Assembly (NCBI GenBank): GCA_020073445.1
Contig: JAIQFE010000010.1
Coordinates: forward strand, 88,740-152,739
DNA: 64,000 bases
Origin: Terriglobia bacterium
GTDB taxonomy: Bacteria; Acidobacteriota; Terriglobia; Bryobacterales; Bryobacteraceae
Direction of reading: 5' to 3'
Shown here one piece after another: positions 9,829 through 49,348 of this stretch. A program made the position numbers and the translations under genes. Every line of letters starts with the position of its first letter. Position 1 is the stretch's first letter. Below the pieces are notes generated by a model. It saw only the letters and a list, made by a program, of their open reading frames with translations. It was not told the DNA's origin and ran no database searches.

Positions 9829-11579
9829 GCAAGCACCCTCATCACAACTACCGTTTGATCGTCGAAGATCTGCGCGGATCCGCGGAACTTGTCCACGGCC
9901 GCGATGATGGCGTCCGCAATGGCCTGTGGAGCCTCGGTCCCCTGCTTCTTGAGAACACGCATGATGCGCTCGCGGCCGAATTCGTCGCCCTTTTCGTTGG
10001 GCTGCTCGTCGACGCCGTCCGAGTAAAGGACCAGAACATCGCCCGGTTCGGATGCGATTTCCACTTCATCGTATTCACGGCCCTCGAGCAAACCGATGGG
10101 CACGCCTTCGATCTTAGTCTCCAGAATCTCACCCTTGCGAAGAACCAAAGGTGGTGCGGAGCCGGCATTCGAAAGTAGAAAGTGCCGCGAAGCCGGTTGC
10201 CACAGGGCAATCAGAAGCGTGGCGTATTGAGCTTCCACTTTCCGTTCGAGCAGCGTTTCATTTAGCTTCTGAATCAGCTCCGCGGGCTGGCGCCGCCGCG
10301 AGAGTGTCCGGAGCAATCCCGAGAGCAGTGCTCCGTACAAAGCGGCCGCGGCACCTTTTCCACTTACGTCTCCAAACGCAATGACGCAGGCGCCCTCCTC
10401 GGCGTGATCGAAAAACCCGAACACGTCGCCGGAGATTTCCCGAGCCGGGCGGTTTCGGATCCCGGTCACGAGGCCCTGTATTTCCGGATCTTCGCGCGGC
10501 AATAGGATGCGCTGGACCTTGCGCGCCGCCTTCAAATCCTGATCCATGCGCTGCTCGCGCTGGTTCACTTCCTCATACAGACGGGCGTTCTCTACGGAAC
10601 TCGCGATCTGCTGGGCCAGCAGGGAGAGCGTGCGCTGATGGTCCTCGGTGAAGAATGAGATGCGCTCGCTTTCCACGTCGAGCACGCCGGCGACGCGGTC
10701 CTGCACGATCAGCGGAACCGCGAGTTCCGATCGGATTCCTGGATGCGAGGCGATATAGCGCGAATCGGCGCCGGTATCGAGCACACGAACCGGCTCGCGC
10801 GATTCCACGGCCGCGCCGGTAATGCCTTTTCCCAGGGGAATGTTGTCGATCTTCACTCTCTTGTCGTAGCGAACACTGAAGCGGTTTCGCAGAATGCTCC
10901 GTTCGTTGTCCACCAGGAAGACGCTGAAGGCATCGTAAGGGATCAGAGCCCGCGTAGCCGAGGCAATCTTCGTCAGCAGCTCATCCAGATCCAGGATCGC
11001 GCTAAATTCCCGCGAAAGATGAGCCAGGGTCCGAAGGGTGCGATTCTGCCGGTCGACGCGCCGGTACAGCCTGGCGTTTTCAATAGAAGAGGCCACGCGC
11101 GAACCGATCAGGCTGAGCATGGAACGGTCCTGCTCGCCGTAGGCCTTCACGCGAGTCGACTGGACGTCAAGCACGCCCACCAGCTTGCCCCGGGCGGTCA
11201 TCGGCACGGCCAATTCGCTGCGAACGGCGTCCAGAGCGTTCAGATATCGCGGGTCCTGGCTGACGTCTTCGACCAGCACGGGCTCGCGACGCGCAGCGGC
11301 TGTTCCGACGATTCCCTCACCGAGAGGAATCGACAGGCTGCGCACAACTTCCTCACGGTGTCCGATGGCGTGCCGGATGGTGAGCGCGTGCGTCCGCTCG
11401 CTGTACAGCAGAATGGCGAACACATCGTAGGGAACCACTTCCTTCACGATGGAGGCGATGGTCGAAAGCTGCTCCGCCAGATCGAGCGTCTCAGAGCTGA
11501 CGCGCGACACTTCGAGAAGAAAGTCCAGAAGTTCGGCGCGCTCCCGGAAACGAAGCGCGGTACGGCGTGGGGTTGTCAC
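9825..11579 (-). CDS. GAF-GAF-PP2C (SpoIIE-type) serine phosphatase, probably a partner-switching regulator.
   Basis: 584 aa. Two GAF-like segments (..[27 protein letters not shown].. and ..[27 protein letters not shown]..) are followed by a PP2C core (..[13 protein letters not shown].., ..[11 protein letters not shown]..). Confidence 0.8.
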
Positions 11580-12262
11580 TGCTTGATGGCCTCCACGATT
11601 TGAACTCCGGAGCTGGTGCCGATGCGATTCGCACCCGCTGCTCGCATGGCTTCCAGGTCTTCCAGAGTACGGACTCCGCCAGACGCCTTGACGCCGATAT
11701 CCGAACCGACGGTGCGACGCATCAGGGTTACATCGTGGACCGTTGCGCCTTGGGTCGAGAATCCCGTGGAGGTCTTGACGAAATCTGCGCCGGCCTGCTG
11801 ACTGATGGTGCAGGCGGCGATCTTTTGATCGTCATTCAGCAGGCAAGTTTCGAGAATCACCTTGACGATCGCGCCGCGAGCGTGAGCGGCAGTCACCACA
11901 GCCGCGATGTCGGCGCGGACCGCATCGAGGTTGCCCCCGCAAAGCTCCCCGATATTCAACACCATGTCGACTTCCCGTGCTCCCGCGGCGATGACCGCTT
12001 CCGTTTCCGCCACCTTGATGGCCGTGGTATTCGCGCCCAGCGGGAATCCCGCGACAGCAGCTACTTGCACGGGAGATCCAGCCAGCTCGGACGCCGCCAA
12101 CCCAACCCAGTAGGGATTTACGCACACCGTGGCGAATCCGTACAGGCGCGCTTCCTGGCACAACCGGCGGATATCAACGCCGGTCGCCTGCGGTTTGAGC
12201 AGGGTGTGGTCGATCAGGGCGGCGATCTCGCGCACGAGTCCCACTGAGGTACTTGGGGGCAT
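11576..12262 (-). CDS. deoC: Deoxyribose-phosphate aldolase.
   Basis: 228 aa. DeoC signature including the Schiff-base lysine region (..[10 protein letters not shown]..) and ..[29 protein letters not shown]. Confidence 0.85.
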
Positions 12263-12316
12263 TCTTCATAATATCGTGCTCGTCGGCACAATGGCCTTCG
12301 GTATTATGAAGAGATC

Positions 12317-13537
12317 ATGGAAACCGCCGTAGCCACGCCTGCCACATCGGTAATCGATCTAGAAGCCAAGTACTTATTCCAAAACTATGCGCGGTACCCG
12401 CTGGTCCTGCATCGTGGCAAAGGATGCTACGTCTACGATACGTCCGGCAAGCGCTATCTGGATCTGATTGCCGGCATCGGAGTGAATGCCCTGGGCCACG
12501 CCCACCCGCGCCTGATGAAGGTGATCCGGGAGCAGGCCGGGCGAATGCTCCACTCCTCGAATCTGTACTATCACGAGTATCAGGGACCGCTCGCGGAGCG
12601 CATCGCTAAAGTCACCGGTCTGGACCGCGTGTTCTTCTGCAACTCGGGAACCGAGGCCATGGAAGGCGCGCTCAAGATCATCCGCGCGCACGGCAAGAAA
12701 ATCAGCCCCCACAAGTTTGAGACGGTGGCCTTGTTCGATTCCTTTCACGGCCGGACGTTCGGCGCCCTTTCGATCACAGGCCAGGAGAAGTATCGCAGCG
12801 ACTTTGAACCGATGCTGCCCGGGGCCCGCTTCGTGCATCGCAACGACATCGGTGCGCTGGAGCAAGTGATCGGCGAGAATACGGCGGGGATCGTCATCGA
12901 GATTGTGCAGGGCGAAGGCGGGATCAATCCTCTGACCGACGAATATATCCGCGCGGCCCGCGACCTGGCGAACCGCCACAATGCGCTGCTGGTATTCGAC
13001 GAGATCCAGTGCGGCGTCGGGCGGCCCGGAGCCTATTTCTCGTATCAATTGCTGGATCCCGTGGTGATGCCCGATATCACCACGGCTGCCAAGCCGCTAG
13101 CGTGTGGGGTTCCTCTGGGCTTTGTCGCGGCCACCGAGCGCGCGGCGAATGCGATCGGCAAGGGCCAGCACGGGACCACGTTCGGCGGCGGACCGCTGGC
13201 GTGCCGGATCGCTCTTGAGTTCTTCGACATCCTGGACGAGCTGCTCCCGAACATCATCCATGTTGGCGGGTATTTCCGGATGCAGTTGATGGAACTGGCC
13301 AAGAAGTTCTCGTTCATCCAGGAAGTGCGCGGCTACGGCCTGATGATCGGAGTGGAGCTTGAGTTCTCGGGCAAGCAGATCGTGCTGGATGCCATGGAGC
13401 AGGGCCTGTTGATTAACTGCACGCACGATAAGGTTCTCCGCGCGCTGCCGCCTTATATCTTGAGCGAGCAGGATGTGGACCGGGCAGTGAGCGTGCTGAA
13501 AAAGGTCTTCAAGAAGGCGAAGCCGCCGGAAGCCTAA
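12317..13537 (+). CDS. argD: Acetylornithine/succinylornithine aminotransferase (class-III PLP aminotransferase).
   Basis: 406 aa. N-terminal ..LHRGKGCYVYDTSGKRYLDLIAGIGVNALGHAHP.., then ..VFDEIQCGVGRPGAYF.. and ..TAAKPLACGVPLG.. (the PLP lysine is in the T..K motif). Confidence 0.85.
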   Translation: METAVATPATSVIDLEAKYLFQNYARYPLVLHRGKGCYVYDTSGKRYLDLIAGIGVNALGHAHPRLMKVIREQAGRMLHSSNLYYHEYQGPLAERIAKVTGLDRVFFCNSGTEAMEGALKIIRAHGKKISPHKFETVALFDSFHGRTFGALSITGQEKYRSDFEPMLPGARFVHRNDIGALEQVIGENTAGIVIEIVQGEGGINPLTDEYIRAARDLANRHNALLVFDEIQCGVGRPGAYFSYQLLDPVVMPDITTAAKPLACGVPLGFVAATERAANAIGKGQHGTTFGGGPLACRIALEFFDILDELLPNIIHVGGYFRMQLMELAKKFSFIQEVRGYGLMIGVELEFSGKQIVLDAMEQGLLINCTHDKVLRALPPYILSEQDVDRAVSVLKKVFKKAKPPEA

Positions 13538-39174: not shown

Positions 39175-41583
39175 TCATTTGCGCACTGCCAGCACGCTAA
39201 CGCCGGCCGGAACATCGACCCTACTGGGCGGCTGCTTGAGCGTCGCGGAAAACGATGCAGGCTCATTCGATGTCCTGACCCAAACCGTCTGCGTCGCGCC
39301 TTTGGCGAACTGAATCTCTACCGGAACATCGACAGAGAAGTTAACGTCGACGGAGGATTGTTCCACCGTGCCGGAGATCTTCCACGACGGAGCTTTGCCT
39401 TTGACCGAGTATTTTACGCGCAGCGTAGGGATGCCGGTGGAGTACACCCAGTTGTCGAAGAAAACCTCCATCGAGTCGGCGGACACGCCCGGGGGCAGCG
39501 ATTTCTTGACCAGATCCAGCAGATCCGCGGTGCCCATCGCACGAAATTGGTATTGGCGCCGCACCTCCGCCAGTACCTTGAGGAAGCGCTCATTGCCCAA
39601 CCGCTTCCGCAGCATATGCAAAACCCAGGCACCCTTCTCATACGTGATGACGCGGTACGCCTCGGATGTTTTCGATGCCTCCAGGCGATAGCCCCAGGTG
39701 ACGGGTCCAGCCGATTCCACGGTCTGGCTGTCTTCGCCGGTCTTGAGCAGGTCAGCCTGAAAGTCCGCCATGACTTCGTCCAGAGCCTTGGACCCTTTCT
39801 TCTTCTCCAGCCACAGCAGCGCGGAATAGTGGGCCAGCCCTTCGAACAGCCATTCGTCCTGATAGCTCTTGGGCATGACGATATTGCCCCACCACTGGTG
39901 CGCCACTTCGTGAGCCGCCATCAAATCGGAAAAGAAAGTCTGCAAGGTTGCGTTGCGCGCTGCCGCTGGCCGCTCCAGCGGATCGAGATACGAGAGCGTG
40001 GACAAATACACCAGGCCCGGAAATCCCTGCCCGAAAGTACCCGGGATCGGCGCTACCGTTAGTGTCTTTAGAGGAGGAGGGCCGAAGAGCCCCGAGAAAT
40101 ATTGGAAAGATGCCGACACATCCGCCGCGACGGCGTTCAGCCGCGCCAGTGGATCGGGCGGCGTCGGGGTTTGAACGATGGTCGTCAGTTCTCGCCGCGG
40201 CGGAGTCCGTGGACCCATTGGGATCACCTGGGTATAAGTAGTAGTCTTGGGCGGCGGTTGTAGTGCGGGGTCGAGATTGCGATTCCCGAACACGTCCACC
40301 GTGAGCCCGCCCGCGGACATGGAACTCTTCTCATAGTTACCGAGATTGAATCCCGCCACGCGGATAGGCACGGGAGTGCGGCGCTCGGTGTTCCGGTAGT
40401 CGCCATCGATGGTGTCCATCACGATGTCGCCCGGCGTGACCAGCGTGAGCCGGCGGGGGTAGCGGAATACCAAATCGTAATCCGCGAAAGCCGATCCGCT
40501 GCGGGGATACCAATTGGAGCGGCCGCCGACGGAATAGACTCCGTTGCCGGGGCTGGTGATGAGCGCTCCTTCGTGTTCGAACTCCACTTTGTGCACGCTG
40601 CCGGGCGCGAGGGCATCGGGCGTCGTGAGCAGGAAAACGTCGTTCTCGTCAGCGCGCAGCGCGCGGCTGCGGGTGGACTCGCTGATCAGCAGTTCCACGG
40701 GTGCTCCGTCCATTCGCGCCGCGGTGACCTGCTCCGCGCGCGAAACTTCGAACGCAAACGCCCGCAGCGGCTGGGATCCGATCTTCAGAGTGGCGCGGGT
40801 GACGGCCCGCAGACGCAGGTTTTCGTCGAGCGACGCTTCTATCCGGAATTGGGTCAGCGAAAACAACGGATCGGGAGGCGCGGCTGCACCGCTGCGAAAG
40901 CGGCGGGCGGCAAATCTTGTCCAGACATCGTAGACCACGCGTTGGCCGCGTTCCATCAATTGGCCGACCACCACTTGTTCGGATGCGGCGGGATCGTAAA
41001 TCACGTCGAAATTTCCGAGCGCCTTGCCGGCCAGCGCAGTCAACAGCAGCCCGTCCTTGCGGCCCGGAGTAAGGAGGTCGCCCGCGATGCGCGGCGCGAA
41101 GCTATCCAGGATATTGGAAACCACCGGCGCCCATTGTTCCGCCAGCAGCGGGGCCATCTCGGGAGCTTTGCGTCCCGAGCCCTTCTCGATGCTCTCAAGG
41201 AGTTGCCGCGCGGTATCGTCGGTGAACAGCAGCAGCGCCCTGGTGAAGTGTTCGTTGAGATTGGGGGAACCGGTGAAGCGCGCGAGCGACTGCCGTTCGC
41301 CACGCTGGGGCGGCAGCAGCAGGACCTCGCCATCGCCTCCCTCGACATCGGCGGTGAAGACCGCCGCGATCCGTTCCCCGGCTACGGGCTTGGAAAAAAT
41401 CAGGTAGCCTTCGTTGAAATAGAGCTTGATGTCTTCTTTATAGAGGCTCAAGTCGCGGACGCGATAGCACTGGTCGAGGTCCAGGCCTGCGTTCTTGACG
41501 GCGCGCGAGGTTTCCACCGCGGTAGGACCGGCGGCCCAGCCGGCCAGCGGCAGGATCAAAAGGAATACAGCTCTCCGAACCAC
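39175..41583 (-). CDS. Secreted M1-family zinc aminopeptidase.
   Basis: 802 aa. Signal peptide. Gluzincin motif HEVAHQWWGN (HExxH) with downstream ..WLFEGLAHY.. (the E and Y of M1 peptidases). Confidence 0.8.
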   Translation of the reverse strand: MVRRAVFLLILPLAGWAAGPTAVETSRAVKNAGLDLDQCYRVRDLSLYKEDIKLYFNEGYLIFSKPVAGERIAAVFTADVEGGDGEVLLLPPQRGERQSLARFTGSPNLNEHFTRALLLFTDDTARQLLESIEKGSGRKAPEMAPLLAEQWAPVVSNILDSFAPRIAGDLLTPGRKDGLLLTALAGKALGNFDVIYDPAASEQVVVGQLMERGQRVVYDVWTRFAARRFRSGAAAPPDPLFSLTQFRIEASLDENLRLRAVTRATLKIGSQPLRAFAFEVSRAEQVTAARMDGAPVELLISESTRSRALRADENDVFLLTTPDALAPGSVHKVEFEHEGALITSPGNGVYSVGGRSNWYPRSGSAFADYDLVFRYPRRLTLVTPGDIVMDTIDGDYRNTERRTPVPIRVAGFNLGNYEKSSMSAGGLTVDVFGNRNLDPALQPPPKTTTYTQVIPMGPRTPPRRELTTIVQTPTPPDPLARLNAVAADVSASFQYFSGLFGPPPLKTLTVAPIPGTFGQGFPGLVYLSTLSYLDPLERPAAARNATLQTFFSDLMAAHEVAHQWWGNIVMPKSYQDEWLFEGLAHYSALLWLEKKKGSKALDEVMADFQADLLKTGEDSQTVESAGPVTWGYRLEASKTSEAYRVITYEKGAWVLHMLRKRLGNERFLKVLAEVRRQYQFRAMGTADLLDLVKKSLPPGVSADSMEVFFDNWVYSTGIPTLRVKYSVKGKAPSWKISGTVEQSSVDVNFSVDVPVEIQFAKGATQTVWVRTSNEPASFSATLKQPPSRVDVPAGVSVLAVRK

Positions 41584-41621
41584 TTTGGAATCTAGTCTAC
41601 TCCAAATGGCAGGGCTGCTTG

Positions 41622-42131
41622 CTAGATGAACATTTCCTCGTCAACGGTGACTTGATCCGGGCTGGGACGAGTGCCGCGCATCAGGAATCCCAGTGCCGCG
41701 CGAACGCCCGCGGCCACGCCGTTGATTCCGCGGATGGGTGCCAGGATTCCCTTGTGCACCAACTCGACGGTATCCTGAGCGCGATTGAGGGCGTCCTCCA
41801 CCACGATTTCGGCGCGCTCCAGTTGGCGGCGAGTCCTCAAGGAAGCGTCCTGCAGAACCTCCTCCACGGTCTCCATTTGCTGCCTGGCGACATCCAGGAT
41901 CTGATTGGTCCGGGTGGTGATTTCCGTCATCTTGATGCGTGCTTCATCGATGGTGGCGCGCGAAGTCTCGACCAGCGCATCCACTTTGACGGTCAGCGGA
42001 ACGATCCGGTCGCGCAGCTCCCGCGAGGCCTTATAAGTTCCATACAGCATGGCCGCCTGAAAGATCAGAGCTGCCGCGGAAACTGCGACGAACACGGCAA
42101 TCAGTGCAAGAAATATTGTCTGGTTATCCAT
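41622..42131 (-). CDS. Hypothetical membrane-anchored coiled-coil protein.
   Basis: 169 aa. One N-terminal TM (IFLALIAVFVAVSAAALIF) followed by a helical R/E/Q-rich region. No family recognised. Confidence 0.45.
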   Translation of the reverse strand: MDNQTIFLALIAVFVAVSAAALIFQAAMLYGTYKASRELRDRIVPLTVKVDALVETSRATIDEARIKMTEITTRTNQILDVARQQMETVEEVLQDASLRTRRQLERAEIVVEDALNRAQDTVELVHKGILAPIRGINGVAAGVRAALGFLMRGTRPSPDQVTVDEEMFI

Positions 42132-42179
42132 ATGACTCGCGAGCGGGCCCTCCGTCCCGCATGGCGGCCGCTCTGGTCT

Positions 42180-42473
42180 CTAATCGGTCTGCGGCGTCTT
42201 CACCGCTTCGCGATACGCCTGTTTCCCGGCGTCGACCGCCGCTGACAGATTCTCCTTATGGCGGCGAATCTGGTCCTTGCCACGATCGATTGTTTCCGCG
42301 GCCGTGTCACGCAGGTCTTCGGCGCGGCGCTTTACATAATCCGTGCCCTCTTCGGCTTTGCTGCGCAGGAACTCGCGAGTTTCCTCGCCCGACTTCGGTG
42401 CGAACAGCACCCCGACAGCCACGCCCAATCCCAAGCCTAGGAAAAAGTACGACAGCTTGTTATCGTCCTCCAT
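42180..42473 (-). CDS. YtxH-like small membrane-associated protein.
   Basis: Start at the internal ATG (MEDDNKLSYFFLGLGLGVAVGVLFAPKSGEETREFL...). A glycine-zipper TM followed by an amphipathic helix, as in the YtxH/DUF883 class. Confidence 0.55.
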   Translation of the reverse strand: MEDDNKLSYFFLGLGLGVAVGVLFAPKSGEETREFLRSKAEEGTDYVKRRAEDLRDTAAETIDRGKDQIRRHKENLSAAVDAGKQAYREAVKTPQTD

Positions 42474-42610
42474 CTCCGTTACTCCTTTCAATAAGTTCGC
42501 CCATGTCACTCACAGAATAGCAGTGTGGGACCCACTCTGCTGATACAGCGGAGGCGTGCTTCATTTCGCGAATCGTGATCCTGGAATCGAGATGATAGAC
42601 TGGTGCAGCT

Positions 42611-43723
42611 ATGACGCGCCGCGTCGCGTGCCTTATCCTCCTGGTGGTGCCGGGACCGGCGTTCAGCCAGGGTCCCCCGGAGTCTTTGTCCGATACTTTC
42701 CAAGACGTTCGCCGGATCGTGGCGATCGGCGACGTTCATGGCGACTATCAGCGTTTCCTGGAGGTGCTGCGCACTGCGGGGCTCGTCGACGCCAGGAACG
42801 CGTGGACCGGCGGCGACACCCACCTGGTGCTAACCGGCGACTTTGTCGATCGCGGGGATCATTCGGCCCAGGTGCTGGATTTGCTGATGGAGCTGGAACC
42901 GCAGGCTAGCAAAGCGGGAGGCCGGCTGCACGCGCTAATCGGAAATCACGAGGCCATGGATCTGTATGGCGATCTGAGGTACGTGACCAAGGACGACTTC
43001 GAGGGGTTCCAGCGGCCCGATTCCAAGGATCTCCAAGACCGGCAGATGCGCGCGGCGTTGGACGATCTCAAGCGTCAAGGCACGCCGCCCGCGGACGAAA
43101 GCGCGTGGCGCAAGAAGTTCCAGGACGAACACCCGCTGGGATGGGTGGAGCATGGCCTGGCGTTTCAGCCCAATGGCAAATACGGAAAATGGATACGCCA
43201 ACTGAACGCCATCGTCAAGATCAACGATGCGGTTTTCCTGCATGGCGGCATCAGTTCGAAGTATGCCGCTTTGACTCGCGGCGAAATTAATACCAAGGTC
43301 CGGGCAGAGCTATCCGATTTCAGCAAGCTCGCCAAGGGAATCGTCACCGCCGACGATGGTCCGCTGTGGTACCGCGGCATGGCGCAGCTGCCAGAGGACG
43401 ATCGGGGAATGGCGAAACTGCTGCCCCAGGTCCTGGCGAAGCAACAAGTCCGGCACATCGTGATCGGTCACACTCCTCAGCTGGCCGTGACGCCGCGCTT
43501 CGACGGAAAGGTGATTGCGATCGACGTGGGATTATCGAAGCCGTTTGACGGGCCGCCGGCGTTTCTCCTGATTGAGGACGGCAAATACTTCGCAATGCAC
43601 CGCGGCCGCCGTCTCGACTTGCCGGTCGATGGGGGGAACCTGGTGGAATATCTCAGAGCGGCAGCCGCATTAGAGCCGGATAATTCGCGTCTGCGCCGGG
43701 CGGTCCAGAAGGGCCGGCCCTAG
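42611..43723 (+). CDS. Secreted PPP-family metallophosphoesterase (Shewanella-like Ser/Thr phosphatase type).
   Basis: 370 aa. Signal peptide. Motifs GDVHGD, GDFVDRG, GNHE and ..HGG.., the calcineurin-like phosphoesterase signature set. Confidence 0.8.
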   Translation: MTRRVACLILLVVPGPAFSQGPPESLSDTFQDVRRIVAIGDVHGDYQRFLEVLRTAGLVDARNAWTGGDTHLVLTGDFVDRGDHSAQVLDLLMELEPQASKAGGRLHALIGNHEAMDLYGDLRYVTKDDFEGFQRPDSKDLQDRQMRAALDDLKRQGTPPADESAWRKKFQDEHPLGWVEHGLAFQPNGKYGKWIRQLNAIVKINDAVFLHGGISSKYAALTRGEINTKVRAELSDFSKLAKGIVTADDGPLWYRGMAQLPEDDRGMAKLLPQVLAKQQVRHIVIGHTPQLAVTPRFDGKVIAIDVGLSKPFDGPPAFLLIEDGKYFAMHRGRRLDLPVDGGNLVEYLRAAAALEPDNSRLRRAVQKGRP

Positions 43724-44520
43724 TTCCTCTTAGGGCGGTCGAACAACGCGCTGTCGCCTTTGGCTTCGAACAACTTCACAATGAGATCGCGCCTGGCTAA
43801 CAGACCCTGAACTTCCGCTTTAGTCAGTTCCTTGCCCAGTTCCTTGCTTAAGGTAGCTTCGTCCAGGGTTTTCATTTTGGCGAGCAGGTTCCGGTCACAG
43901 CTCTTTAGAACGCTCGGATCTTTCAGAGCCTTGTGAACCCGAAAAGCCCGGCTGTGGTCGATCAACCAGAGATGCCAGCTCTTGTCGATCAGCATGTTGG
44001 TCTGGTTGCGGTCCATGTTGTAGATCAACTGATCGAAGACCTGCATGACATTGTTCTCACGGTTCCACGCTTCCTGGTCGGGAGGCTGGGTGTTCTTGGC
44101 CCTCCGCTCGGTCTCGTCCATCATGATGTTGTCGATCCACCATGTGAAGGACGCGCTCTTCCCGTCAAAGGACCGCTTCACCGAAGGAGGAATCATGTCG
44201 TCGAGCCCCAGCAGCCGCGCCAGCTTCCAGCCGGCGATGTTGAACTTGTACGTGTCTTTGAATCCTATTTCGTTCAGAAAACTCGTCTTGTAGTCGTCGA
44301 TGGTTTGCACACTGGCCTCGTGAGTGAGGGCGCCGTCGCTCAGGCTGACACGCAAGGTCCCCGTGACGCCCTTCTTCGCTTCCTTACTCTGCGTGACCTT
44401 TGCTTTCGTCAGGAAATCCTCTTGTTGTTGCGATGTGAGCGTGTCGGCCGCGTGCAGCAGGCTGAAGGGAATTGCCAGCAAAACCGCAGCGAGGGCGGAA
44501 CGGTGACAGAATGTTCGCAT
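43720..44520 (-). CDS. Secreted protein with a PI3K/PI4K-like atypical kinase catalytic core (inferred).
   Basis: 266 aa. Signal peptide MRTFCHRSALAAVLLAIPFSLLHAAD. Catalytic-loop-like NMDRNQTNML and activation-loop-like LWLIDHS, with the two Asp exactly 18 residues apart as in DRHxxN...IDFG of PI3/PI4-kinases. Convergent with the phosphatase gene and overlapping it by 4 nt. Confidence 0.4.
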   Translation of the reverse strand: MRTFCHRSALAAVLLAIPFSLLHAADTLTSQQQEDFLTKAKVTQSKEAKKGVTGTLRVSLSDGALTHEASVQTIDDYKTSFLNEIGFKDTYKFNIAGWKLARLLGLDDMIPPSVKRSFDGKSASFTWWIDNIMMDETERRAKNTQPPDQEAWNRENNVMQVFDQLIYNMDRNQTNMLIDKSWHLWLIDHSRAFRVHKALKDPSVLKSCDRNLLAKMKTLDEATLSKELGKELTKAEVQGLLARRDLIVKLFEAKGDSALFDRPKRN

Positions 44521-44573
44521 AATTCACAGCAGTCTATCACCATCCGTTGTAGTAAAATAGGCCCCTAAATTAC

Positions 44574-45935
44574 ATGTCTGCCGCTAAAGCGACGGATTCC
44601 GGCCCGAAGAAAGGCGCCGCGGAGAAAGTCTTGTCTCTGCTGGCCGATGTGCGGGCGGGCGAGGGCGTCGGCGTCTTGTTGCTGGCGCTGAACTCTTTCC
44701 TGCTGCTGATGAGCTACTACCTGCTGAAAACCGTGCGGGAGCCGCTCATCTTGACCCAGGGCGGCGCCGAGGTGAAGGCGTATTCGGCCGCGCTGCAGGC
44801 GCTGCTCTTATTGGGGATCGTCCCGGCCTACGGGGCACTGGCTTCGCGCGTCAGCCGCATCCGCCTGATCACCTGGGTCACGCTGATATTCGTAGTAAAT
44901 CTCTTGCTGTTTTACGCCTTCGGCGTGGCGGGAGTGCGCGAGGGCGTGGTTTTCTTCTTATGGGTGGGAATCTTTAACGTCTTCGTCGTGGCCCTGTTCT
45001 GGTCCTTCGCCAACGACTTGTACTCCGAATCCCACGGAAAGCGCCTGTTTCCCGCGATAGCGATCGGCGGCTCGCTGGGAAGCCTGGTGGGAGCCCAGGC
45101 GGCTGCCATGATCATGCGCGTCACCGGTCCGTATCCCTTGATGCTGATCGCGGCCGGGGTGCTGGTGGTCTGTATCCTGATCAGCCGCGTGATTCATTAC
45201 CGGGCTGCGTCCGACGCGGCGCATTTTTCCGCCGGACACGCGGCGGCTCCGTTGGCCCGAACGGGCACCCTGGAACTGCTGCTGCGCGATCGTTATCTGC
45301 TGCTGATCGCGTTGCTGGTCTTGCTGCTGAATGTGGTGAACAATTCCGGCGAGTTTCTGCTCGGGAAGCTGGTCACGGCCGATGCGATTCGCGTGGCCGG
45401 TTCCAACATAGGCCTCCAGGAAAAGATCATCGGGGAGTTTTACGGACACTACGAGGTCTGGTACAACAGCGTGGCGCTGGGGTTGCAGATGTTCGCTGTG
45501 TCCCGCATCTTCCGGTACGCGGGAGTTCGCGGCGCGCTGTTCGTCCTTCCCGCCCTGGCCATGGGGAGTTATTCGTTCCTGCTGTTGCTGCCGGTACTGC
45601 CGGTGATACGCTGGCTCAAAATCCTGGAGAACGGCGCGGATTACTCGGTGCAGAACACCACGGTGCACGCGCTGTTCCTGCCCACCAGCCGGGAGGCGAA
45701 ATACAAAGCCAAGGCGGCTATCGACACGTTCTTCAAACGTGCAGGAGATGTGATCGAGGCAGGCGTCGTTAAGGTGGGATCCCTGTTCGAACTCGGGATT
45801 CAGGGCTTTGCCGTGATCAATCTGGTGTTGACCCTGGTCTGGTTCGCCGTGGCTTTCGCAATCGCACGCGCGCACCGCAGGCGGGCCGAGAAGGAACCTC
45901 AGCCGAAAACTGCGGACGCACCCGTTCTAGCATGA
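44574..45935 (+). CDS. TLC/AAA-family (ATP:ADP antiporter-like) MFS-type transporter.
   Basis: 453 aa, about 11-12 TM segments. The N-terminal amphipathic region and ..LLLALNSFLLLMSYYLLKTVREPLIL.. resemble the Npt/Tlc family. Confidence 0.5.
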   Translation: MSAAKATDSGPKKGAAEKVLSLLADVRAGEGVGVLLLALNSFLLLMSYYLLKTVREPLILTQGGAEVKAYSAALQALLLLGIVPAYGALASRVSRIRLITWVTLIFVVNLLLFYAFGVAGVREGVVFFLWVGIFNVFVVALFWSFANDLYSESHGKRLFPAIAIGGSLGSLVGAQAAAMIMRVTGPYPLMLIAAGVLVVCILISRVIHYRAASDAAHFSAGHAAAPLARTGTLELLLRDRYLLLIALLVLLLNVVNNSGEFLLGKLVTADAIRVAGSNIGLQEKIIGEFYGHYEVWYNSVALGLQMFAVSRIFRYAGVRGALFVLPALAMGSYSFLLLLPVLPVIRWLKILENGADYSVQNTTVHALFLPTSREAKYKAKAAIDTFFKRAGDVIEAGVVKVGSLFELGIQGFAVINLVLTLVWFAVAFAIARAHRRRAEKEPQPKTADAPVLA

Positions 45936-48124
45936 AGTTCCCCGGGCTTCCGAATTCCTCCACGGCCCGCCAGGCGATTCTGGTGTCGGGCCTGATGATG
46001 GCCTGGCAGCTGGCCGCGAAGACCACGCGCGATAGCTTGTTCCTGGCCGTGTTCCCGGCCTCGGCTCTTCCTCCAGCCGTGGGAGCGGCGGCCGTCTGCT
46101 CCATCATCGTTGCGCTTTTCAGTGCGAAGTTGGTGCATCGCTTTGGTCCTTACCGGTTGATTCCATCGGTGTATCTGCTGGGCGCCGGACTACACGTGGC
46201 CGAGTGGATACTTCTCACGACCTTTCCCCGGCCTGTCGCAGCGTTCATTTATATCCACATCATGGCGCTCGGTCCAGTGATGCTCTCCGGATTTTGGGCC
46301 CTGGCCAGCGAACGGTTCGATCCCCGCGAGGCTCGCCGTCGATTCGGCCAAATCGCGGGCGCCGGGACTCTGGGAAGTCTGGCAGGCGGCTTGATGGCGG
46401 AGCGGGTCGCGGCCCTGACCACCAGCGCCGACCTACTCATTCTGCTCGCGGTGCTGCAGCTCGCGGGCGGCCTGGCCTTATTCCGCTTCGCTCCGCAACA
46501 CTCGGCGGAAAAGAAGCATGAGATTCCTTCTTTTCCTGAAATGCTTTCGGGCGCGCCCTACCTGGTGGGGCTGGCTGCCTTCGTGATGCTGATCTCGATG
46601 AGCGCGGCCGGTCTCGATTTTCTTTTCCGCTCGAGCGCCCTCACGCAGTTTGGCAAAGGCGCCGCCCTCAGCCGATTCTTCGCGATCTTTTACACGTCCA
46701 CTTCCTTGGCGACATTCGGGGTTCAAGCCGGCCTCAGCCGGATTTGGCTAAAGCGGTTCGGTCCGGGGCACACCGTGGCCGTACTTCCCGTGGCTGTAAC
46801 CGGGGTCAGTCTGGTGTCCCTGCTGGTTCCCGGCGCGGCGGCTATCTTCTTTAGCCGGGGACTGGAGGTTCTGCTGAGAGGATCGCTGTTCCGCTCCGGA
46901 TACGAGCTGTTCTACACGCCTATGCCGGCGGCCGAGCGGCGCTCGGTCAAAACCGTGATCGATATTGGAGCGGACCGTCTCGGAGAGGGATTGGCCGCCG
47001 CGTCGATTCAGCTCTTGCTGGTGTTCCCCGCGGAGATTTCCTTCCGCGTCATCCTCGCCGCTACTGCGATATGGGCGGGCGTGGCCTCGTGGCTCGCGTT
47101 CCGGCTGGATCGGGCCTACATAGCGGTGCTGGAAAAAGGCCTGGCACGCCAGACCGTCACGATTACTCCGGAAGAAGCCGAGGATGCCGTTACGCGATCG
47201 ATCGTGCTCCGTTCGTCGTCGATGATTGCCGGAGTGGGAGCGGGGCAGCACGGATCCGATTCTCTGCCTATCCATCCCGCCGATATCACCTTGCGTCGGC
47301 TGGCTGAATTGCGATCCAAGGACCCGCTGCGCGCGCGAGCGGCACTGCACGCCATCGATTTGCGGGATCCGCTGCTGGTGCCGCAAGTGATCGCACTGCT
47401 GGGCCGTGATGAAACGGCGCGCGCCGCTCACGAGGCTCTTTCCAGGGCGGCCGATAACATCGCGGGACAGCTCGCGGACCGCCTGGCTGATCCCATGGAG
47501 AACGAAAAAGTTCGCCGCCGCATTCCGCGAGTGCTGGCGGCCTCGAAGAGTCCGCTGGCCTGGCAGGGCCTGTTCCGGCAACTGCGCGATGAGCGCTTCG
47601 AAATTCGCCAGCGCTGCGCCAAGGGGCTCGAGAAGATGCTTCAGGTGAATCCAGAGTTCCGGCCGCAGCCCGTTGCAGTGTTCGAAATCGTCGCCAGCGA
47701 GCTGACCATCAGCCGGAAAAGTTTATCGAAAGCGGCGGCGGCGTCAGCGCCAGAGGAGGCGGATGGCGCGGACTTAGTCGACGAGGTGCTGCGCGAAAGA
47801 GGATCGCAGGTGATGACGCATGTCGCGACGCTGCTGGGTCTGGTGCTGCCTCAGCAATCCGTCCGGCTGGCGTTTCGGGCGCTATATACCGAAGACGCGA
47901 AGCTGCGTGGCGTCGCGCTGGAATATCTGGACAGTGTCTTGCCCAAGGGACTTCGCGAGCAGTTGGCCGCTCAGATCGAGGGTCCTGTGGCGCGTCCCGC
48001 GAAGAGCGGAACGGCTCCCGAGGAGGCCTTGTCCAATCTGATGGATGAGAGCCCGTCGATCATGGCGCGGCTGGAGCACCTAAGGGGCGACGCGCCGGAG
48101 CGCAAGGGTTCGTCGGGAACATAG
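45932..48124 (+). CDS. Membrane-transporter-like domain fused to a C-terminal HEAT-repeat region.
   Basis: 730 aa. The N-terminal about 400 aa have multiple TM helices, paralogous in style to the upstream transporter. The C-terminal about 300 aa have Ala/Leu/Arg-rich repeats (..PLLVPQVIALLGRDETARAAHEALSRAADNIAGQL..RIPRVLAASKSPLAWQGLFRQLRDERFEIRQRCAKGLEKM..) typical of HEAT/PBS repeats. ATGA overlap with the upstream gene. Confidence 0.55.
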   Translation: MKFPGLPNSSTARQAILVSGLMMAWQLAAKTTRDSLFLAVFPASALPPAVGAAAVCSIIVALFSAKLVHRFGPYRLIPSVYLLGAGLHVAEWILLTTFPRPVAAFIYIHIMALGPVMLSGFWALASERFDPREARRRFGQIAGAGTLGSLAGGLMAERVAALTTSADLLILLAVLQLAGGLALFRFAPQHSAEKKHEIPSFPEMLSGAPYLVGLAAFVMLISMSAAGLDFLFRSSALTQFGKGAALSRFFAIFYTSTSLATFGVQAGLSRIWLKRFGPGHTVAVLPVAVTGVSLVSLLVPGAAAIFFSRGLEVLLRGSLFRSGYELFYTPMPAAERRSVKTVIDIGADRLGEGLAAASIQLLLVFPAEISFRVILAATAIWAGVASWLAFRLDRAYIAVLEKGLARQTVTITPEEAEDAVTRSIVLRSSSMIAGVGAGQHGSDSLPIHPADITLRRLAELRSKDPLRARAALHAIDLRDPLLVPQVIALLGRDETARAAHEALSRAADNIAGQLADRLADPMENEKVRRRIPRVLAASKSPLAWQGLFRQLRDERFEIRQRCAKGLEKMLQVNPEFRPQPVAVFEIVASELTISRKSLSKAAAASAPEEADGADLVDEVLRERGSQVMTHVATLLGLVLPQQSVRLAFRALYTEDAKLRGVALEYLDSVLPKGLREQLAAQIEGPVARPAKSGTAPEEALSNLMDESPSIMARLEHLRGDAPERKGSSGT

Positions 48125-48140
48125 GCTGACCCCACTTGAG

Positions 48141-48575
48141 TCAAACAGGCCGACGCGGCACCCAGACGTTCGGAGTCACGACGAATACTACCTCGCCCCT
48201 CTGATTCCGAGCCGTGGATCGGAGCTTCACGATGCCGTGAGTGGGCTTGGACTTCGAAGGCCGGATCTCGAGTATTTCCGTCTCGACTTGAATGGTATCG
48301 CCGGGACGCACTGGCAGCGGCCATGCCATGTTGTCCACGCCCATTCCCAGGATGGGTAAACTCCCCAGCGGCTTCGCGTCGGCAACCAGACGCATCACCA
48401 GGGCACCGGTATGCCATCCGCTGGCGATTAATCCGCCCTCTGCGTTCGGGTCCGTATGCATCGGCTGCGGGTCGAATTTGCGCGAGAAGTCGAGGATCTC
48501 CGCCTCCGTGATCGTCACCGAGTCTGTTTTGGTTTTTTCGCCGACCTGAAGGTCTTCTAGGTAACGATCACTCAC
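48141..48575 (-). CDS. MaoC-like (hotdog fold) dehydratase.
   Basis: GTG start at 48575 overlapping the LytTR stop (GTGA). ..VSDRYLEDLQVGEKTKTDSVTITEAEILDFSRKFDPQPMHTDPNAEGGLIASGWHT.. is the MaoC dehydratase signature. Confidence 0.7.
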   Translation of the reverse strand: MSDRYLEDLQVGEKTKTDSVTITEAEILDFSRKFDPQPMHTDPNAEGGLIASGWHTGALVMRLVADAKPLGSLPILGMGVDNMAWPLPVRPGDTIQVETEILEIRPSKSKPTHGIVKLRSTARNQRGEVVFVVTPNVWVPRRPV

Positions 48576-49348
48576 AGCTTCAGCAGCGCTCGCAGCCGCT
48601 TGGTCTGGACGCGGCTCACCGGGATCTCGGTCTGTTTCTTGTCGTCCATGCGGAGCTGGAAACTGGACTTGAACCACGGGATCACTTCCTTGATCCGGTG
48701 GATGTTCACCAGATAAGACCGGTGCACGCGCCAGAAAGTATCGGGATCGAGATTGGATTGCAGCTCTTCTATGGTTCGGTAATTGGACTGGCCTTCCAGG
48801 TTACTGGCGACCACGGTGATCAGCCCGTCGTCGATGGTGGCGTAGACCACGTCCTGCGCGTCGACGATGAAGTTCCGCTGGTTGCTTCTCACCAGGAGCT
48901 TGCTGCGCTGCAGGGCAGGCTTGGGCGAAGGCGGCTCAGGCGGGGCGCCTTTATTTCGATCGCTTACCGCTTTGCGTGCGCGATCCACGGCCACCGTCAG
49001 GCGTTCCTTGTCGACCGGCTTCAGGACGTAATCGAGCGCTTCCCACCGGAAAGCCTCCACGGCGTACTGATCGTAGGCCGTGGCCATGACGAAGTGGGGC
49101 AGGGGAATGTCGAGCTCCCGCAGCTTGCGGATGACGCTCATGCCGTCCAGGCCGGGCATCTGGACGTCCAGGAACACCAGGTCCGGCTCCAGATCCTGGA
49201 TGAGCTTCAGCGCCTCAAGGCCATTAGACGCCGTGGCGATGATCTCGATATCGGGGAACTCCTTGAGCTGGTAGGCCAATTCCTCGGAGGCGAGTTTTTC
49301 ATCGTCCACCAGGATCGCGGAGATAGTCGCAGTCGCGCGATTCTGCAT
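48572..49348 (-). CDS. LytTR-family two-component response regulator (orphan; no kinase gene adjacent).
   Basis: 258 aa. Receiver domain (..ILVDDEKLASEE.., ..LVFLDVQMPGLDG.., ..ATAYDQYA..) plus a C-terminal LytTR DNA-binding domain (..FWRVHRSYLVNIHRIKEV..). Confidence 0.85.
   Translation of the reverse strand: MQNRATATISAILVDDEKLASEELAYQLKEFPDIEIIATASNGLEALKLIQDLEPDLVFLDVQMPGLDGMSVIRKLRELDIPLPHFVMATAYDQYAVEAFRWEALDYVLKPVDKERLTVAVDRARKAVSDRNKGAPPEPPSPKPALQRSKLLVRSNQRNFIVDAQDVVYATIDDGLITVVASNLEGQSNYRTIEELQSNLDPDTFWRVHRSYLVNIHRIKEVIPWFKSSFQLRMDDKKQTEIPVSRVQTKRLRALLKL

Follow-up and report, generated by a model that had tools for sequence, protein, structure and literature searches.

The eukaryotic secretory pathway combines Fam20C with lumenal ATP, which is provided through an ATP/ADP exchanger of the ER/Golgi. 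Researchers have assigned the key residues of Fam20C, namely the K285-E311 ion pair, E306, the catalytic D458 and the metal-binding D478, and have found that Fam20A is inactive owing to a Gln at the E306 position (PMC4421793), while Hydra Fam20B carries an Asp there and the Fam20 family has been traced only within animals (PMC5865150). Every NTT characterised so far is a nucleotide importer from an intracellular parasite or a plastid (PMC1951785; PMC5381601), and PamNTT1, the only NTT characterised in depth, has a strong preference for ATP import with negligible ATP export (PMC1951785). No function has been assigned to the NTT-HEAT clade that occurs in free-living bacteria (Major et al. 2017). 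In this work, we describe a Terriglobia locus in which a Fam20-like candidate kinase (K), a phosphatase (P) and two NTT-type transporters (T1 and T2) lie side by side, and on balance we lean towards reading it as a conserved extracytoplasmic "writer-eraser" module. The features below are numbered within the window, that is, the whole stretch of 64,000 nucleotides that was analysed.

42611..43723, (+) strand: P, 370 aa, MBZ5674732.1, labelled "metallophosphoesterase"; predicted exported Shelph-type PPP metallophosphatase
42611..42667, (+) strand: predicted signal peptide of P, residues 1-19, MTRRVACLILLVVPGPAFS followed by QG
43720..43723: CTAG palindrome holding the overlapping stop codons of the convergent genes P and K
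43720..44520, (-) strand: K, 266 aa, MBZ5674733.1, GenBank label "hypothetical protein"; exported Fam20/PI4KII-like protein-kinase-fold candidate
43939..44037, (-) strand: catalytic segment of K, FDQLIYNMDRNQTN...LWLIDHSRAFR, with D170, N175, D188, R191 and F193
44239..44307, (-) strand: N-lobe segment of K, with Gln72, Asp89 and Asn94 at the positions of Fam20C K285, E306 and E311 (alignment to human Fam20C)
44449..44520, (-) strand: predicted signal peptide of K, residues 1-24, with cleavage between LHA and AD; disordered in the structure model
44521..44573: divergent intergenic region between K and T1, 53 bp
44574..45935, (+) strand: T1, 453 aa, MBZ5674734.1, labelled "translocase"; NTT/TLC-family membrane transporter (ATP/ADP-translocase-like)
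45932..48124, (+) strand: T2, 730 aa, MBZ5674735.1; NTT-like membrane domain with a C-terminal HEAT-like region

An earlier note on this DNA had proposed that P and K form a convergent pair of a secreted calcineurin-like phosphatase and a secreted PI3K/PI4K-like atypical kinase. The ORF list bears out the two convergent reading frames, 42611..43723 on the (+) strand and 43720..44520 on the (-) strand, and all the motifs quoted there are present where they had been placed. Both N-termini are predicted signal peptides that combine a basic n-region with a hydrophobic core and small residues at the cleavage motif; that of K reads MRTFCHRSALAAVLLAIPFSLLHA followed by AD. The proposal as a whole is partly supported: the atypical kinase fold, the export signals and the K-P linkage stand, while an ATP-binding Lys sought upstream was not found and the calcineurin-like label does not hold in the narrow sense. 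The NTT-type genes adjoining K were absent from it, yet they are part of the same conserved neighbourhood. The reading frames of T1 and T2 overlap by 4 nt, and therefore the two genes probably form one operon, while the 53-bp spacer between K and T1 is possibly a shared regulatory region. The 4-nt overlap of the P and K stop codons was also found in two other loci (L001 and L003).

The kinase-fold check on the 266-aa protein, which had been set beforehand as a test able to refute the proposal, returned an atypical kinase fold: the predicted structure of K is protein-kinase-like and closest to solved Fam20 structures, the matched Fam20 chains being 351-418 residues long. A single-sequence PDB search with K gave only noise (alginate lyase, TBP, E about 1), and a profile of 30 sequences reached FAM20A at E=0.4; significance was reached only with a diverse profile of 84 K-family sequences, which matched FAM20A at E=5.4e-10, three Fam20B/C proteins at about 1e-5 and PI4KIIalpha/beta at E 0.12-1. 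Against the Pfam model of Fam20C (PF06702), K scored 18.7 bits, under the cutoff of 26.8, and only 6 of the 84 family members matched this model at E<=0.01. The relation of K to Fam20 is, as far as profile scores tell, one of homology and not of membership. The profile and fold comparisons thus point to a K family that is homologous to the animal Fam20 kinases and, probably more distantly, to type II PI4K, CtkA and HipA. A short motif such as that of K could arise by chance, but we consider it real because the profile similarity to Fam20, the predicted fold and the conservation of D170, N175 and D188 all agree.

The catalytic segment of K carries VFDQLIYNMDRNQTNMLIDKSWHLWLIDHSRAFR, in which the codons of D170 and D188 start at nt 44013 and 43959, and it aligns to the Fam20 segment FDFLxGNMDRHHYE...HLDNGRGFG. 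The comparison with Fam20C places D170 at D458, D188 at D478 and D89 at E306, which suggests that D170 is the catalytic Asp, N175 a metal ligand and D188 the metal-binding, DFG-like Asp. These residues are highly conserved in the family: among 150 cluster representatives at or below 50% identity, D170 was kept in 143, N175 in 144 and D89 in 141, D188 was kept in 144 of the 145 that aligned there, and each of D89, D170, N175, D188 and R191 exceeded 92%. Of 80 independent metagenome loci, 77 also had the whole D89/D170/N175/D188 set. The earlier remark that the His of DRH is replaced by Asn holds true for K (N172), and N is the rule in the family as well (133 of the 150 representatives, with H in 8).

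That same note had based its PI3K/PI4K-like reading on the DRxxxN and IDHS motifs of K and on the spacing of 18 residues between the two Asp. A lipid kinase of this kind would act on an envelope lipid. The spacing from D170 to D188 is indeed 18, but it was rejected as a PI3K/PI4K diagnostic, given that Fam20C has 20 and the fold ranking points elsewhere. The PI3K/PI4K signature consists of the catalytic loop DRHxxN and a DFG at the start of the activation loop. K has DRNQTN and IDHS, keeping only the Asp of the latter, and this Asp/Asn/Asp skeleton is common to Fam20 and type II PI4K, so that it does not tell the families apart. The beta3 Lys typical of PI3K/PI4K is replaced in K by the aligned Gln72. 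Against Pfam PF00454 (PI3K/PI4K), K scored 16.0 bits, under the cutoff of 27.1, and weak matches appeared in 25 of the 84 family members, the best at E 2e-6. We regard a lipid kinase of this type as very improbable.

The search for an ATP-binding Lys upstream in K, which the earlier note had recommended, was negative: the aligned position holds Gln72, and its partner is Asn94. The match of Q72 to K285 comes from the margin of a local HMMER alignment, where confidence is low, but positions 72 and 94 are seen to co-vary among the 150 representatives (Q-N in 109, K/R-E/D in 18, H-Q in 4, and 8 other combinations), which is independent support and fits their alignment to the ion-pair positions. 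K88, in an "FKD" motif that resembles the FKP Lys of Fam20/PI4KII, was also considered as the ATP-binding Lys and rejected, because it is not conserved (R in 37, K in 17 and V in 11 of 84 sequences) and because FKD aligns opposite "SDYE" of Fam20C, which places D89 at E306.

A sequence is usually classed as a pseudokinase when the ATP-anchoring Lys or the alphaC Glu is missing. The replacement of Fam20C K285 and E311 by Gln72 and Asn94, shared by about 75% of the family clusters, therefore counts against an active K, as does the fact that its best single sequence match, FAM20A, is a pseudokinase. Thus, K may instead be a non-catalytic, exported binder of a nucleotide or other ligand, which either controls the Shelph phosphatase or acts as its scaffold, in the way that Fam20A regulates Fam20C, or serves as an extracytoplasmic sensor. 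The sensor version is favoured by proteins such as P0204, in which a TM helix puts the K domain across the membrane from a cytoplasmic Hanks kinase, so that it forms the extracytoplasmic C-terminal domain of a Hanks-type kinase, the usual site of a sensor domain. Also, the periplasm is generally taken to be without ATP and has no known source of it, which again weighs against the main reading. Nevertheless, a catalytic-base Asp is dispensable for mere binding and is usually gone in pseudokinases, whereas in the K family D89, D170, N175, D188 and R191 are conserved to the extent given above. Moreover, the canonical K/R-E/D pair persists, with the same gene partners, in a minority of members, among them five of six P-K fusions, and unlike Fam20A, which is inactive through the Gln at the E306 position, K has the acidic D89 there. 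We therefore think a purely non-catalytic K unlikely, though it deserves more weight than the lipid kinase. The co-varying exchange of Lys-Glu for Gln-Asn in an otherwise complete catalytic set may also be seen as a natural experiment on the role of the ion pair.

The K family is large, almost always exported on the strength of its predicted N-termini, and hitherto unannotated. It comprises about 3,000 clusters at 50% identity, with at least 585 matching stretches in GTDB species-representative genomes and several paralogues in some of them. Every member with a source-given name is a "hypothetical protein", and no Pfam or NCBIfam model captures the family. An N-terminal hydrophobic signal-like segment precedes the core in 77 of 84 members, some with Tat motifs, so that the export signal noted earlier for K is a feature of the K family at large. 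By HMM recount, the 80 loci contain 89 true K ORFs; many of the tandem K paralogues that had appeared in single-linkage ORF clustering were rejected as antisense shadow ORFs inside T genes. In the literature searched, whose coverage was incomplete, the topics of a bacterial Fam20-like family, periplasmic kinases, KINtaro and a Shelph-kinase link yielded no description of the K family or the module.

P contains the motifs GDVHG (40), GDFVDRG (76), GNHE (111), HGG (211), GHT (286) and IDVG (304), and it matched Pfam Metallophos at E=6e-14. Its best PDB match was the Shewanella protein-tyrosine-phosphatase (2Z72/1V73) at E=1.5e-42, in two stretches spanning the catalytic domain, followed by PP2A and BSU1 at E about 1e-5. 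Like the Shelphs, P has all the PPP signature motifs and a long insert between GNHE and HGG (about 96 residues), and its IDVG is a motif of the (I/L/V)D(S/T)G type, with Val in third place as in most of them. By its motifs and closest match, P is an intact Shelph-type PPP of the protein-phosphatase type. The calcineurin-like label given earlier does not apply to P in the narrow sense, and the only characterised close relative is a Tyr-phosphatase. The literature searched, again with incomplete coverage, reported no link of a Shelph to a Fam20-like partner or to an NTT.

Whether K and P are linked in other genomes had also been set beforehand as a test, and many linked loci were found, with fusions in others. 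Among 80 genomes of different species, 36 have a P gene no more than 150 bp from K and 46 have one within 2 kb, in several gene orders (K> P<, P> K>, K-T-P-T and K-P-P-T), and NTT or NTT-HEAT (T-family) genes are near K in 27 of 80 loci. Fusions of a Metallophos domain to K occurred in 6 of 10 long homologues scanned and in 7 of 80 metagenome loci. All six P-K fusions examined have an N-terminal signal peptide, and five of them keep the canonical K/R-E/D pair. An NTT or NTT-HEAT gene directly follows the fusion gene in P0196, P0198 and P0256, and likewise in L096, L097 and L102. In a second sample of 80 metagenome loci, drawn with a different subfamily profile, HMM detection gave 16 P and 15 T, with nearly equal counts at the BLAST level; the co-occurrence count for this sample gave both in 8 loci and P alone in 1. 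The adjacency of K and P could be synteny that one lineage has kept by accident, with no functional tie, and it is true that two close relatives (L002 and L005) are without P, as are many other K loci. However, the adjacency is kept down to 45% K identity, in several gene orders and orientations, the association recurs in the second sample, and the K-P fusions in many independent proteins effectively refute accidental synteny, to which we give next to no credence. No fourth gene that might encode a substrate was conserved in the neighbourhood, the other ORF clusters occurring in at most 9 of 80 loci.

T1 matched Pfam TLC (PF03219) with 51.8 bits against a cutoff of 21, its best PDB match was an ADP,ATP carrier (9j3n/9j3j, E=3e-4), and the segment P..E.KxKxKAAID is conserved. 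T2 scored 20.4 bits with TLC, just under the same cutoff, and had the plastid NTT1 as best PDB match (9j3j, E=8e-4); its HEAT_2 match is weak (E=0.044), and some members of its 90%-identity cluster carry the JGI label "AAA family ATP:ADP antiporter". The T counterparts in other loci gave TLC scores of 31.7-57 bits, except for L033 at 18.8, and TLC together with HEAT_2 was clear in the T2 counterparts of L022, L047, L050, L076, L081, L083 and L087. The neighbours in other K loci have the NTT-HEAT architecture, with one NTT-HEAT-cNBD, as in the survey of Major et al. 2017. The K loci give a first hint, from gene context, of what NTT-HEAT proteins do in free-living bacteria, which that survey left open.

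Another reading of the same neighbourhood is the scavenging of nucleotides or organophosphates, in which P would hydrolyse external nucleotides or phosphoesters, the NTTs would import nucleotides, and the part of K would be to bind nucleotides or convert them in the periplasm. Soil acidobacteria are usually seen as oligotrophs, and the source of the window is a soil Terriglobia MAG, both of which suit such a role. The import by all characterised NTTs (PMC1951785; PMC5381601) suits it as well, and the PPP fold includes the dinucleotide hydrolases ApaH and PrpE, which are among the weak NCBIfam matches of P. However, P is far nearer to the Shewanella Tyr-phosphatase than to ApaH (E=7e-9, N-terminal motifs only), it is hard to see what uptake would need from a kinase-fold protein whose catalytic Asp is conserved, and the joining of P and K in one exported polypeptide suggests a common macromolecular substrate. 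We thus consider scavenging improbable, a little less so than the lipid kinase.

For the writer-eraser module towards which we lean, we speculate that K, exported by the Sec route, would be an active Mg/Mn-dependent phosphotransferase despite Gln72 and Asn94, with D170 as the catalytic base and N175, D188 and D89 holding the metal-nucleotide. K would phosphorylate a periplasmic or cell-envelope substrate, for which a protein is our first choice and a glycan the second, and the exported P would take off the phosphate added by K. T1/T2 may carry adenine nucleotide across the inner membrane and so feed the K reaction. The import preference of PamNTT1, the optional nature of the module (P is missing from the close relatives L002 and L005, and among K loci with long flanks about half lack both P and T) and the lack of a conserved substrate gene were all counted against this reading. 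More tentatively, ATP-dependent phosphorylation outside the cytoplasm might occur in many free-living diderms, with NTT/NTT-HEAT exchanging cytoplasmic ATP for periplasmic ADP, a Fam20-like kinase using the ATP and a Shelph reversing the reaction; we hold this to be possible but rather doubtful. If true, the widespread clade of NTT-HEAT proteins in free-living bacteria would gain its first function, the periplasm could no longer be assumed to be free of ATP-driven kinase chemistry, and the K family would be a bacterial sister family of the secretory Fam20 kinases of animals, or possibly their ancestor. In any case, the K family is a candidate prokaryotic relative of Fam20, and the way it is repeatedly linked or fused with a phosphatase and with NTTs, the only family known for bacterial ATP/ADP exchange, yields a concrete hypothesis with three purifiable components.

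Compared with the known systems, K resembles Fam20 in sitting behind a predicted Sec signal peptide and so probably outside the cytosol, but it is bacterial, and its mature form has about 240 residues as against about 350-400 in the Fam20 kinase domains. The K285-E311 ion pair of Fam20 is Gln-Asn in most K-family members, and K has Asn as its metal ligand at +5 from the catalytic Asp, as against Glu in Fam20. Animal Fam20 proteins also have a conserved disulfide framework and an N-terminal extension, neither of which is found in K; a Fam20-type disulfide pattern is in fact impossible there, because the mature protein has a single Cys (C208). PI4KII is a cytosolic, palmitoylated lipid kinase, and HipA is a cytoplasmic toxin that acts with HipB. 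CtkA of Helicobacter pylori, the HipA-family kinases and CotH score lower against the K family than Fam20 and PI4KII do, the HipA_2 Pfam match of K being below threshold, and pairing with a Shelph phosphatase or an NTT is not known for CtkA, HipA or CotH. By analogy, a parallel may be drawn with secretory phosphorylation in eukaryotes, where a signal-peptide kinase likewise needs a membrane nucleotide exchanger in a compartment that makes no ATP, although the exchanger there belongs to the SLC35 family and the compartment is an organelle lumen instead of a periplasm.

K, the Fam20-like kinase-fold protein of the window, belongs to a new family of exported proteins within the kinase-like superfamily, in which the ion pair is replaced in an unusual, co-varying manner, and the three-gene context that it shares with the Shelph-type phosphatase P and the NTT/TLC-like transporters T1 and T2 (family T) is previously undescribed, within a literature coverage that is incomplete. 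The window was derived from a Terriglobia (Acidobacteriota) MAG, and the ORF list contains both the phosphatase and the kinase-like gene proposed in the earlier note, with the following neighbours (GenBank names in quotation marks).

Genes around the K/P pair in the window
39175-41583, - strand: M1-family peptidase, 802 aa, hydrophobic N-terminus
41622-42131, - strand: 169-aa protein, weak DUF948 match
42180-42509, - strand: YtxH-like protein
42611-43723, + strand: P, 370 aa (MBZ5674732, "metallophosphoesterase")
43720-44520, - strand: K, 266 aa (MBZ5674733, "hypothetical protein")
44574-45935, divergent from K: T1 (MBZ5674734, "translocase")
45932-48124: T2 (MBZ5674735, "hypothetical protein")
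48141-48677, - strand: MaoC-dehydratase ORF, from the first GTG
48572-49348, - strand: Response_reg+LytTR regulator ORF

P and K are convergent, as had been claimed, and their stop codons overlap in a palindromic CTAG (43720-43723); because this leaves no space for a terminator, the two transcripts may overlap as antisense. The same 4-nt overlap of convergent genes was seen in two K-containing loci of other genomes (L001 and L003). The - strand block at 39175-42509, upstream of P, is probably outside the module, since its synteny is limited to the closest relatives (L001, L004 and L005). At the other end, the MaoC-dehydratase ORF overlaps the upstream regulator ORF by 106 nt, and its true start is probably further downstream than the first GTG.

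No model capturing K was found in Pfam-A (2025) or NCBIfam (2026); its matches there are all sub-threshold, lie within residues ~142-248 and belong to kinase-like families (Fam20C, PI3_PI4_kinase, HipA_2, the SCO1664 family and Kdo kinase). Among 84 diverse members of the K family (31-80% identity to K), the commonest weak Pfam matches were PI3_PI4_kinase (25), HipA_2 (21) and Fam20C (6). As K falls below the Pfam threshold of every family and the weak matches are mixed across members, the family is unclassified, and every public-source name for its members is "hypothetical protein". The earlier note had suggested a PI3K/PI4K-like kinase; the kinase-like homology held, but K is not part of the classical PI3K/PI4K group and is nearer to Fam20. 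The fold ranking was led by Hydra Fam20 (18.8), zebrafish Fam20C (18.1) and C. elegans Fam20 (17.4), followed by PI4KIIalpha (16.9), human Fam20C (14.9), CtkA (14.2), actin-fragmin kinase (11.7), HipA (~11) and CotH (10.8), with class I/III PI3K and type III PI4K at 8.8-9.9. A profile of the 84 members, searched against all PDB sequences, matched FAM20A (E=5.4e-10), zebrafish Fam20C (E=1.3e-5), Hydra Fam20 (E=3.2e-5) and human Fam20C (E=5.2e-5), and type II PI4K at E=0.12-1. K is homologous to Fam20 and groups with Fam20, PI4KII, CtkA and HipA within the kinase superfamily; a PI3K/PI4K-type lipid kinase is highly improbable. The family is large, with 1,557 matches among 90%-identity clusters and, in an exhaustive profile search, 2,989 clusters (50% identity) at E<=1e-3, 559 of them at E<=1e-30. 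GTDB species-representative genomes hold at least 585 matching stretches, the best 80 of which all carry Acidobacteriota labels (Bryobacterales, Solibacteraceae, Vicinamibacteraceae and others) except one Planctomycetota MAG, and some genomes have multiple paralogues.

In Fam20C, D458 has been described as the catalytic Asp, D478 as the Asp that binds metal, K285 and E311 as an ion pair, and E306 as a residue specific to Fam20; the E306 position holds Gln in the pseudokinase Fam20A (Cui et al., PMC4421793) and Asp in Hydra Fam20B (Zhang et al. 2018, PMC5865150). K was aligned to human Fam20C with HMMER, and conservation was counted in 150 K representatives of <=50% mutual identity.

Fam20C positions, K residues and conservation in the 150 representatives
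D458: D170, 143/150
E463 position: N175, 144/150
D478: D188, 144/145 aligned
R481: R191, 139/150
E306: D89, 141/150
K285: Q72 (Q 112, R 12, K 7, H 5)
E311: N94 (N 120, E 15, D 5, Q 5)

R116 (146) and F193 (145) are also near-invariant. The catalytic-loop motif reported for K is present (FDQLIYNMDRNQTNMLIDKSWHLWLIDHSRAFR), with eighteen residues from D170 to D188, whereas the canonical ATP-binding Lys for which a check had been proposed is missing, Q72 standing at the K285-aligned position. Co-variation of positions 72 and 94 is nearly perfect (Q-N 109, K/R-E/D 18, H-Q 4, eight other combinations), which independently supports both as counterparts of the Fam20C ion pair; this matters because the N-lobe alignment is at the low-confidence edge of the local match. 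The family is thus split into a minority with the canonical pair, found in five of six Metallophos-fused K proteins, and a Gln-Asn majority that includes K of the window. Position 57 is basic in both groups (R 96, K 19 in the 150 representatives) and may correspond to a second phosphate-binding Lys of Fam20.

P carries the phosphatase motifs claimed for it, GDVHG (residue 40), GDFVDRG (76) and GNHE (111), and matches Pfam Metallophos (E=6e-14) and the Shewanella cold-active protein-tyrosine phosphatase 2Z72/1V73 (E=1.5e-42), then PP2A and BSU1 (E~1e-5). It has the Shelph features of Andreeva and Kutuzov (2004, PMC535813), namely the three motifs of PPP enzymes, GNHE and HGG separated by an insert of ~96 residues, GHT, and Val as third residue of IDVG.

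The signal peptides proposed for both proteins agree with N-termini that run from basic through hydrophobic to small residues; all such calls rest on visual inspection and a hydrophobicity heuristic. An N-terminal hydrophobic segment precedes the conserved core in 77 of 84 K members, mostly Sec-like and ending in AxA-like motifs, and each of the six P-K fusion proteins examined has a signal peptide at its N-terminus. Twin-arginine motifs, which replace Sec signals in a few homologues (RRRQFLK in P0154, TRREFLG in P0231), would imply export in a folded state, possibly with a bound cofactor or metal. A Hanks-type Ser/Thr kinase domain is fused to a C-terminal K domain in P0191 (637 aa); in P0204 (1,167 aa) a cytoplasmic Hanks kinase domain, a TM helix (589-607), TPR repeats and the K domain follow one another, which would put a kinase-fold domain on either side of the membrane. 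Together, N-terminal segments and fusion topologies consistently predict the K domain outside the cytoplasm.

The linkage of P and K, which the earlier note had asked to be checked elsewhere, recurs. In 80 genome loci from different GTDB species (K 45-79% identical to that of the window), P is no more than 150 bp from K in 36, and the count rises to 46 at a limit of 2 kb and to 49 at 6 kb; these are raw counts, not corrected for phylogeny, from species with differing gene orders. The convergent layout of the window (K> P<) is commonest, and co-directional P> K> (L031, L047, L061, L067 and others), K-T-P-T (L023, L035) and K-P-P-T (L022, L026, L037, L066, L076) were also found. This survival of rearrangement argues for a functional link, and six Metallophos(N)-K(C) fusions, beside two Pkinase-K fusions, were found among ten long homologues scanned; adjacency by chance is extremely improbable. 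Unbiased clustering of all ORFs gave TLC/NTT-like membrane proteins as the sole other recurrent family (27/80 loci). In P0196, P0198 and P0256, but not in P0203, P0246 and P0208, the gene immediately after the P-K fusion encodes a TLC+HEAT protein. Of 89 K ORFs in these loci, 81 are of Q-N type and none has the canonical pair; P is within 300 bp of 37 of the 81, and T within 3 kb of 28. A second sample, 80 loci from metagenomes collected by a profile search specific to the ion-pair subgroup and limited by short contigs, gave 54 ion-pair, 16 Q-N and five H-Q K genes, D89/D170/N175/D188 intact in 77 loci, seven P-K fusions and, as a further gene order, K> T< P< (L092, L093, L101, L133). P and T nearly always co-occur there; of 11 ion-pair loci with >=3 kb on both flanks, five have both and six neither. 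The module is coherent but optional. L002 and L005 (K 74-77% identical to that of the window) are otherwise syntenic with the window and retain T1/T2, L005 also the YtxH, DUF948-like and M1 peptidase genes, without P, which appears to have been recently lost and to be dispensable in some lineages.

From sequence, predicted structure and gene context, we infer that K, P and T may together carry out reversible extracytoplasmic phosphorylation, in which K would act as writer and P as eraser while the NTT-type transporter would supply nucleotide. We lean slightly towards this model with an active K, because conservation exceeds 92-95% for the catalytic Asp, for each of the two metal ligands and for the acidic residue specific to Fam20, an acidic residue is kept where its loss inactivates Fam20A, and both ion-pair states have the same gene partners. 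The case against activity is just as concrete: the canonical Lys and Glu are missing in K of the window, the top sequence match is the pseudokinase FAM20A, and the periplasm is generally considered to lack ATP. That K is a pseudokinase regulator or sensor is unlikely. If K is an active writer, a protein substrate is favoured, as P is a member of the PPP class of protein phosphatases, with a Tyr-specific enzyme as its closest characterised relative; a glycan stands as serious second option because the top structural match is a xylosylkinase.

T1 begins 53 bp away from K, and its Pfam TLC score is 51.8 bits (cutoff 21); T2, overlapping T1 by 4 nt, reaches 20.4 bits with a weak HEAT_2 match. An NTT-type ATP/ADP carrier is the top PDB match of each, and T1 retains the ...P..E.KxKxKAAID segment in the carrier alignment. 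The one NTT that has been examined in detail works strictly by counter-exchange, with a strong preference for importing ATP and "negligible" ATP export (PMC1951785), which also counts against an active K. A specific ATP-export step is doubtful, and a nucleotide-scavenging module is improbable.

Full-text searches of an incomplete literature, which may have missed earlier work, returned no description of a bacterial Fam20-like family, a Shelph-kinase pairing or an NTT-HEAT/kinase link; Fam20 has been traced within animals only (Zhang et al. 2018, PMC5865150). After the NTT-HEAT gene downstream of a P-K fusion, an M14 peptidase gene (~880 aa) was seen in two related loci, at L081:13390-16041 and L087:11209-13842, unrelated to the M1 peptidase near the module in the window. 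Where the locus is rearranged, the T2-type counterparts are clearly of TLC+HEAT_2 type; in free-living bacteria, NTT-HEAT proteins are explicitly described as uncharacterised (Major et al. 2017, PMC5381601). One counterpart, a 1,235-aa NTT-HEAT-cNMP-binding protein in L050 (6844-10551), has a K gene on either side (5881-6744 and 10585-11481), and P occupies 11633-12730; it shares the three-domain architecture listed without known function by Major et al. (2017), and here it stands inside a K/P module.
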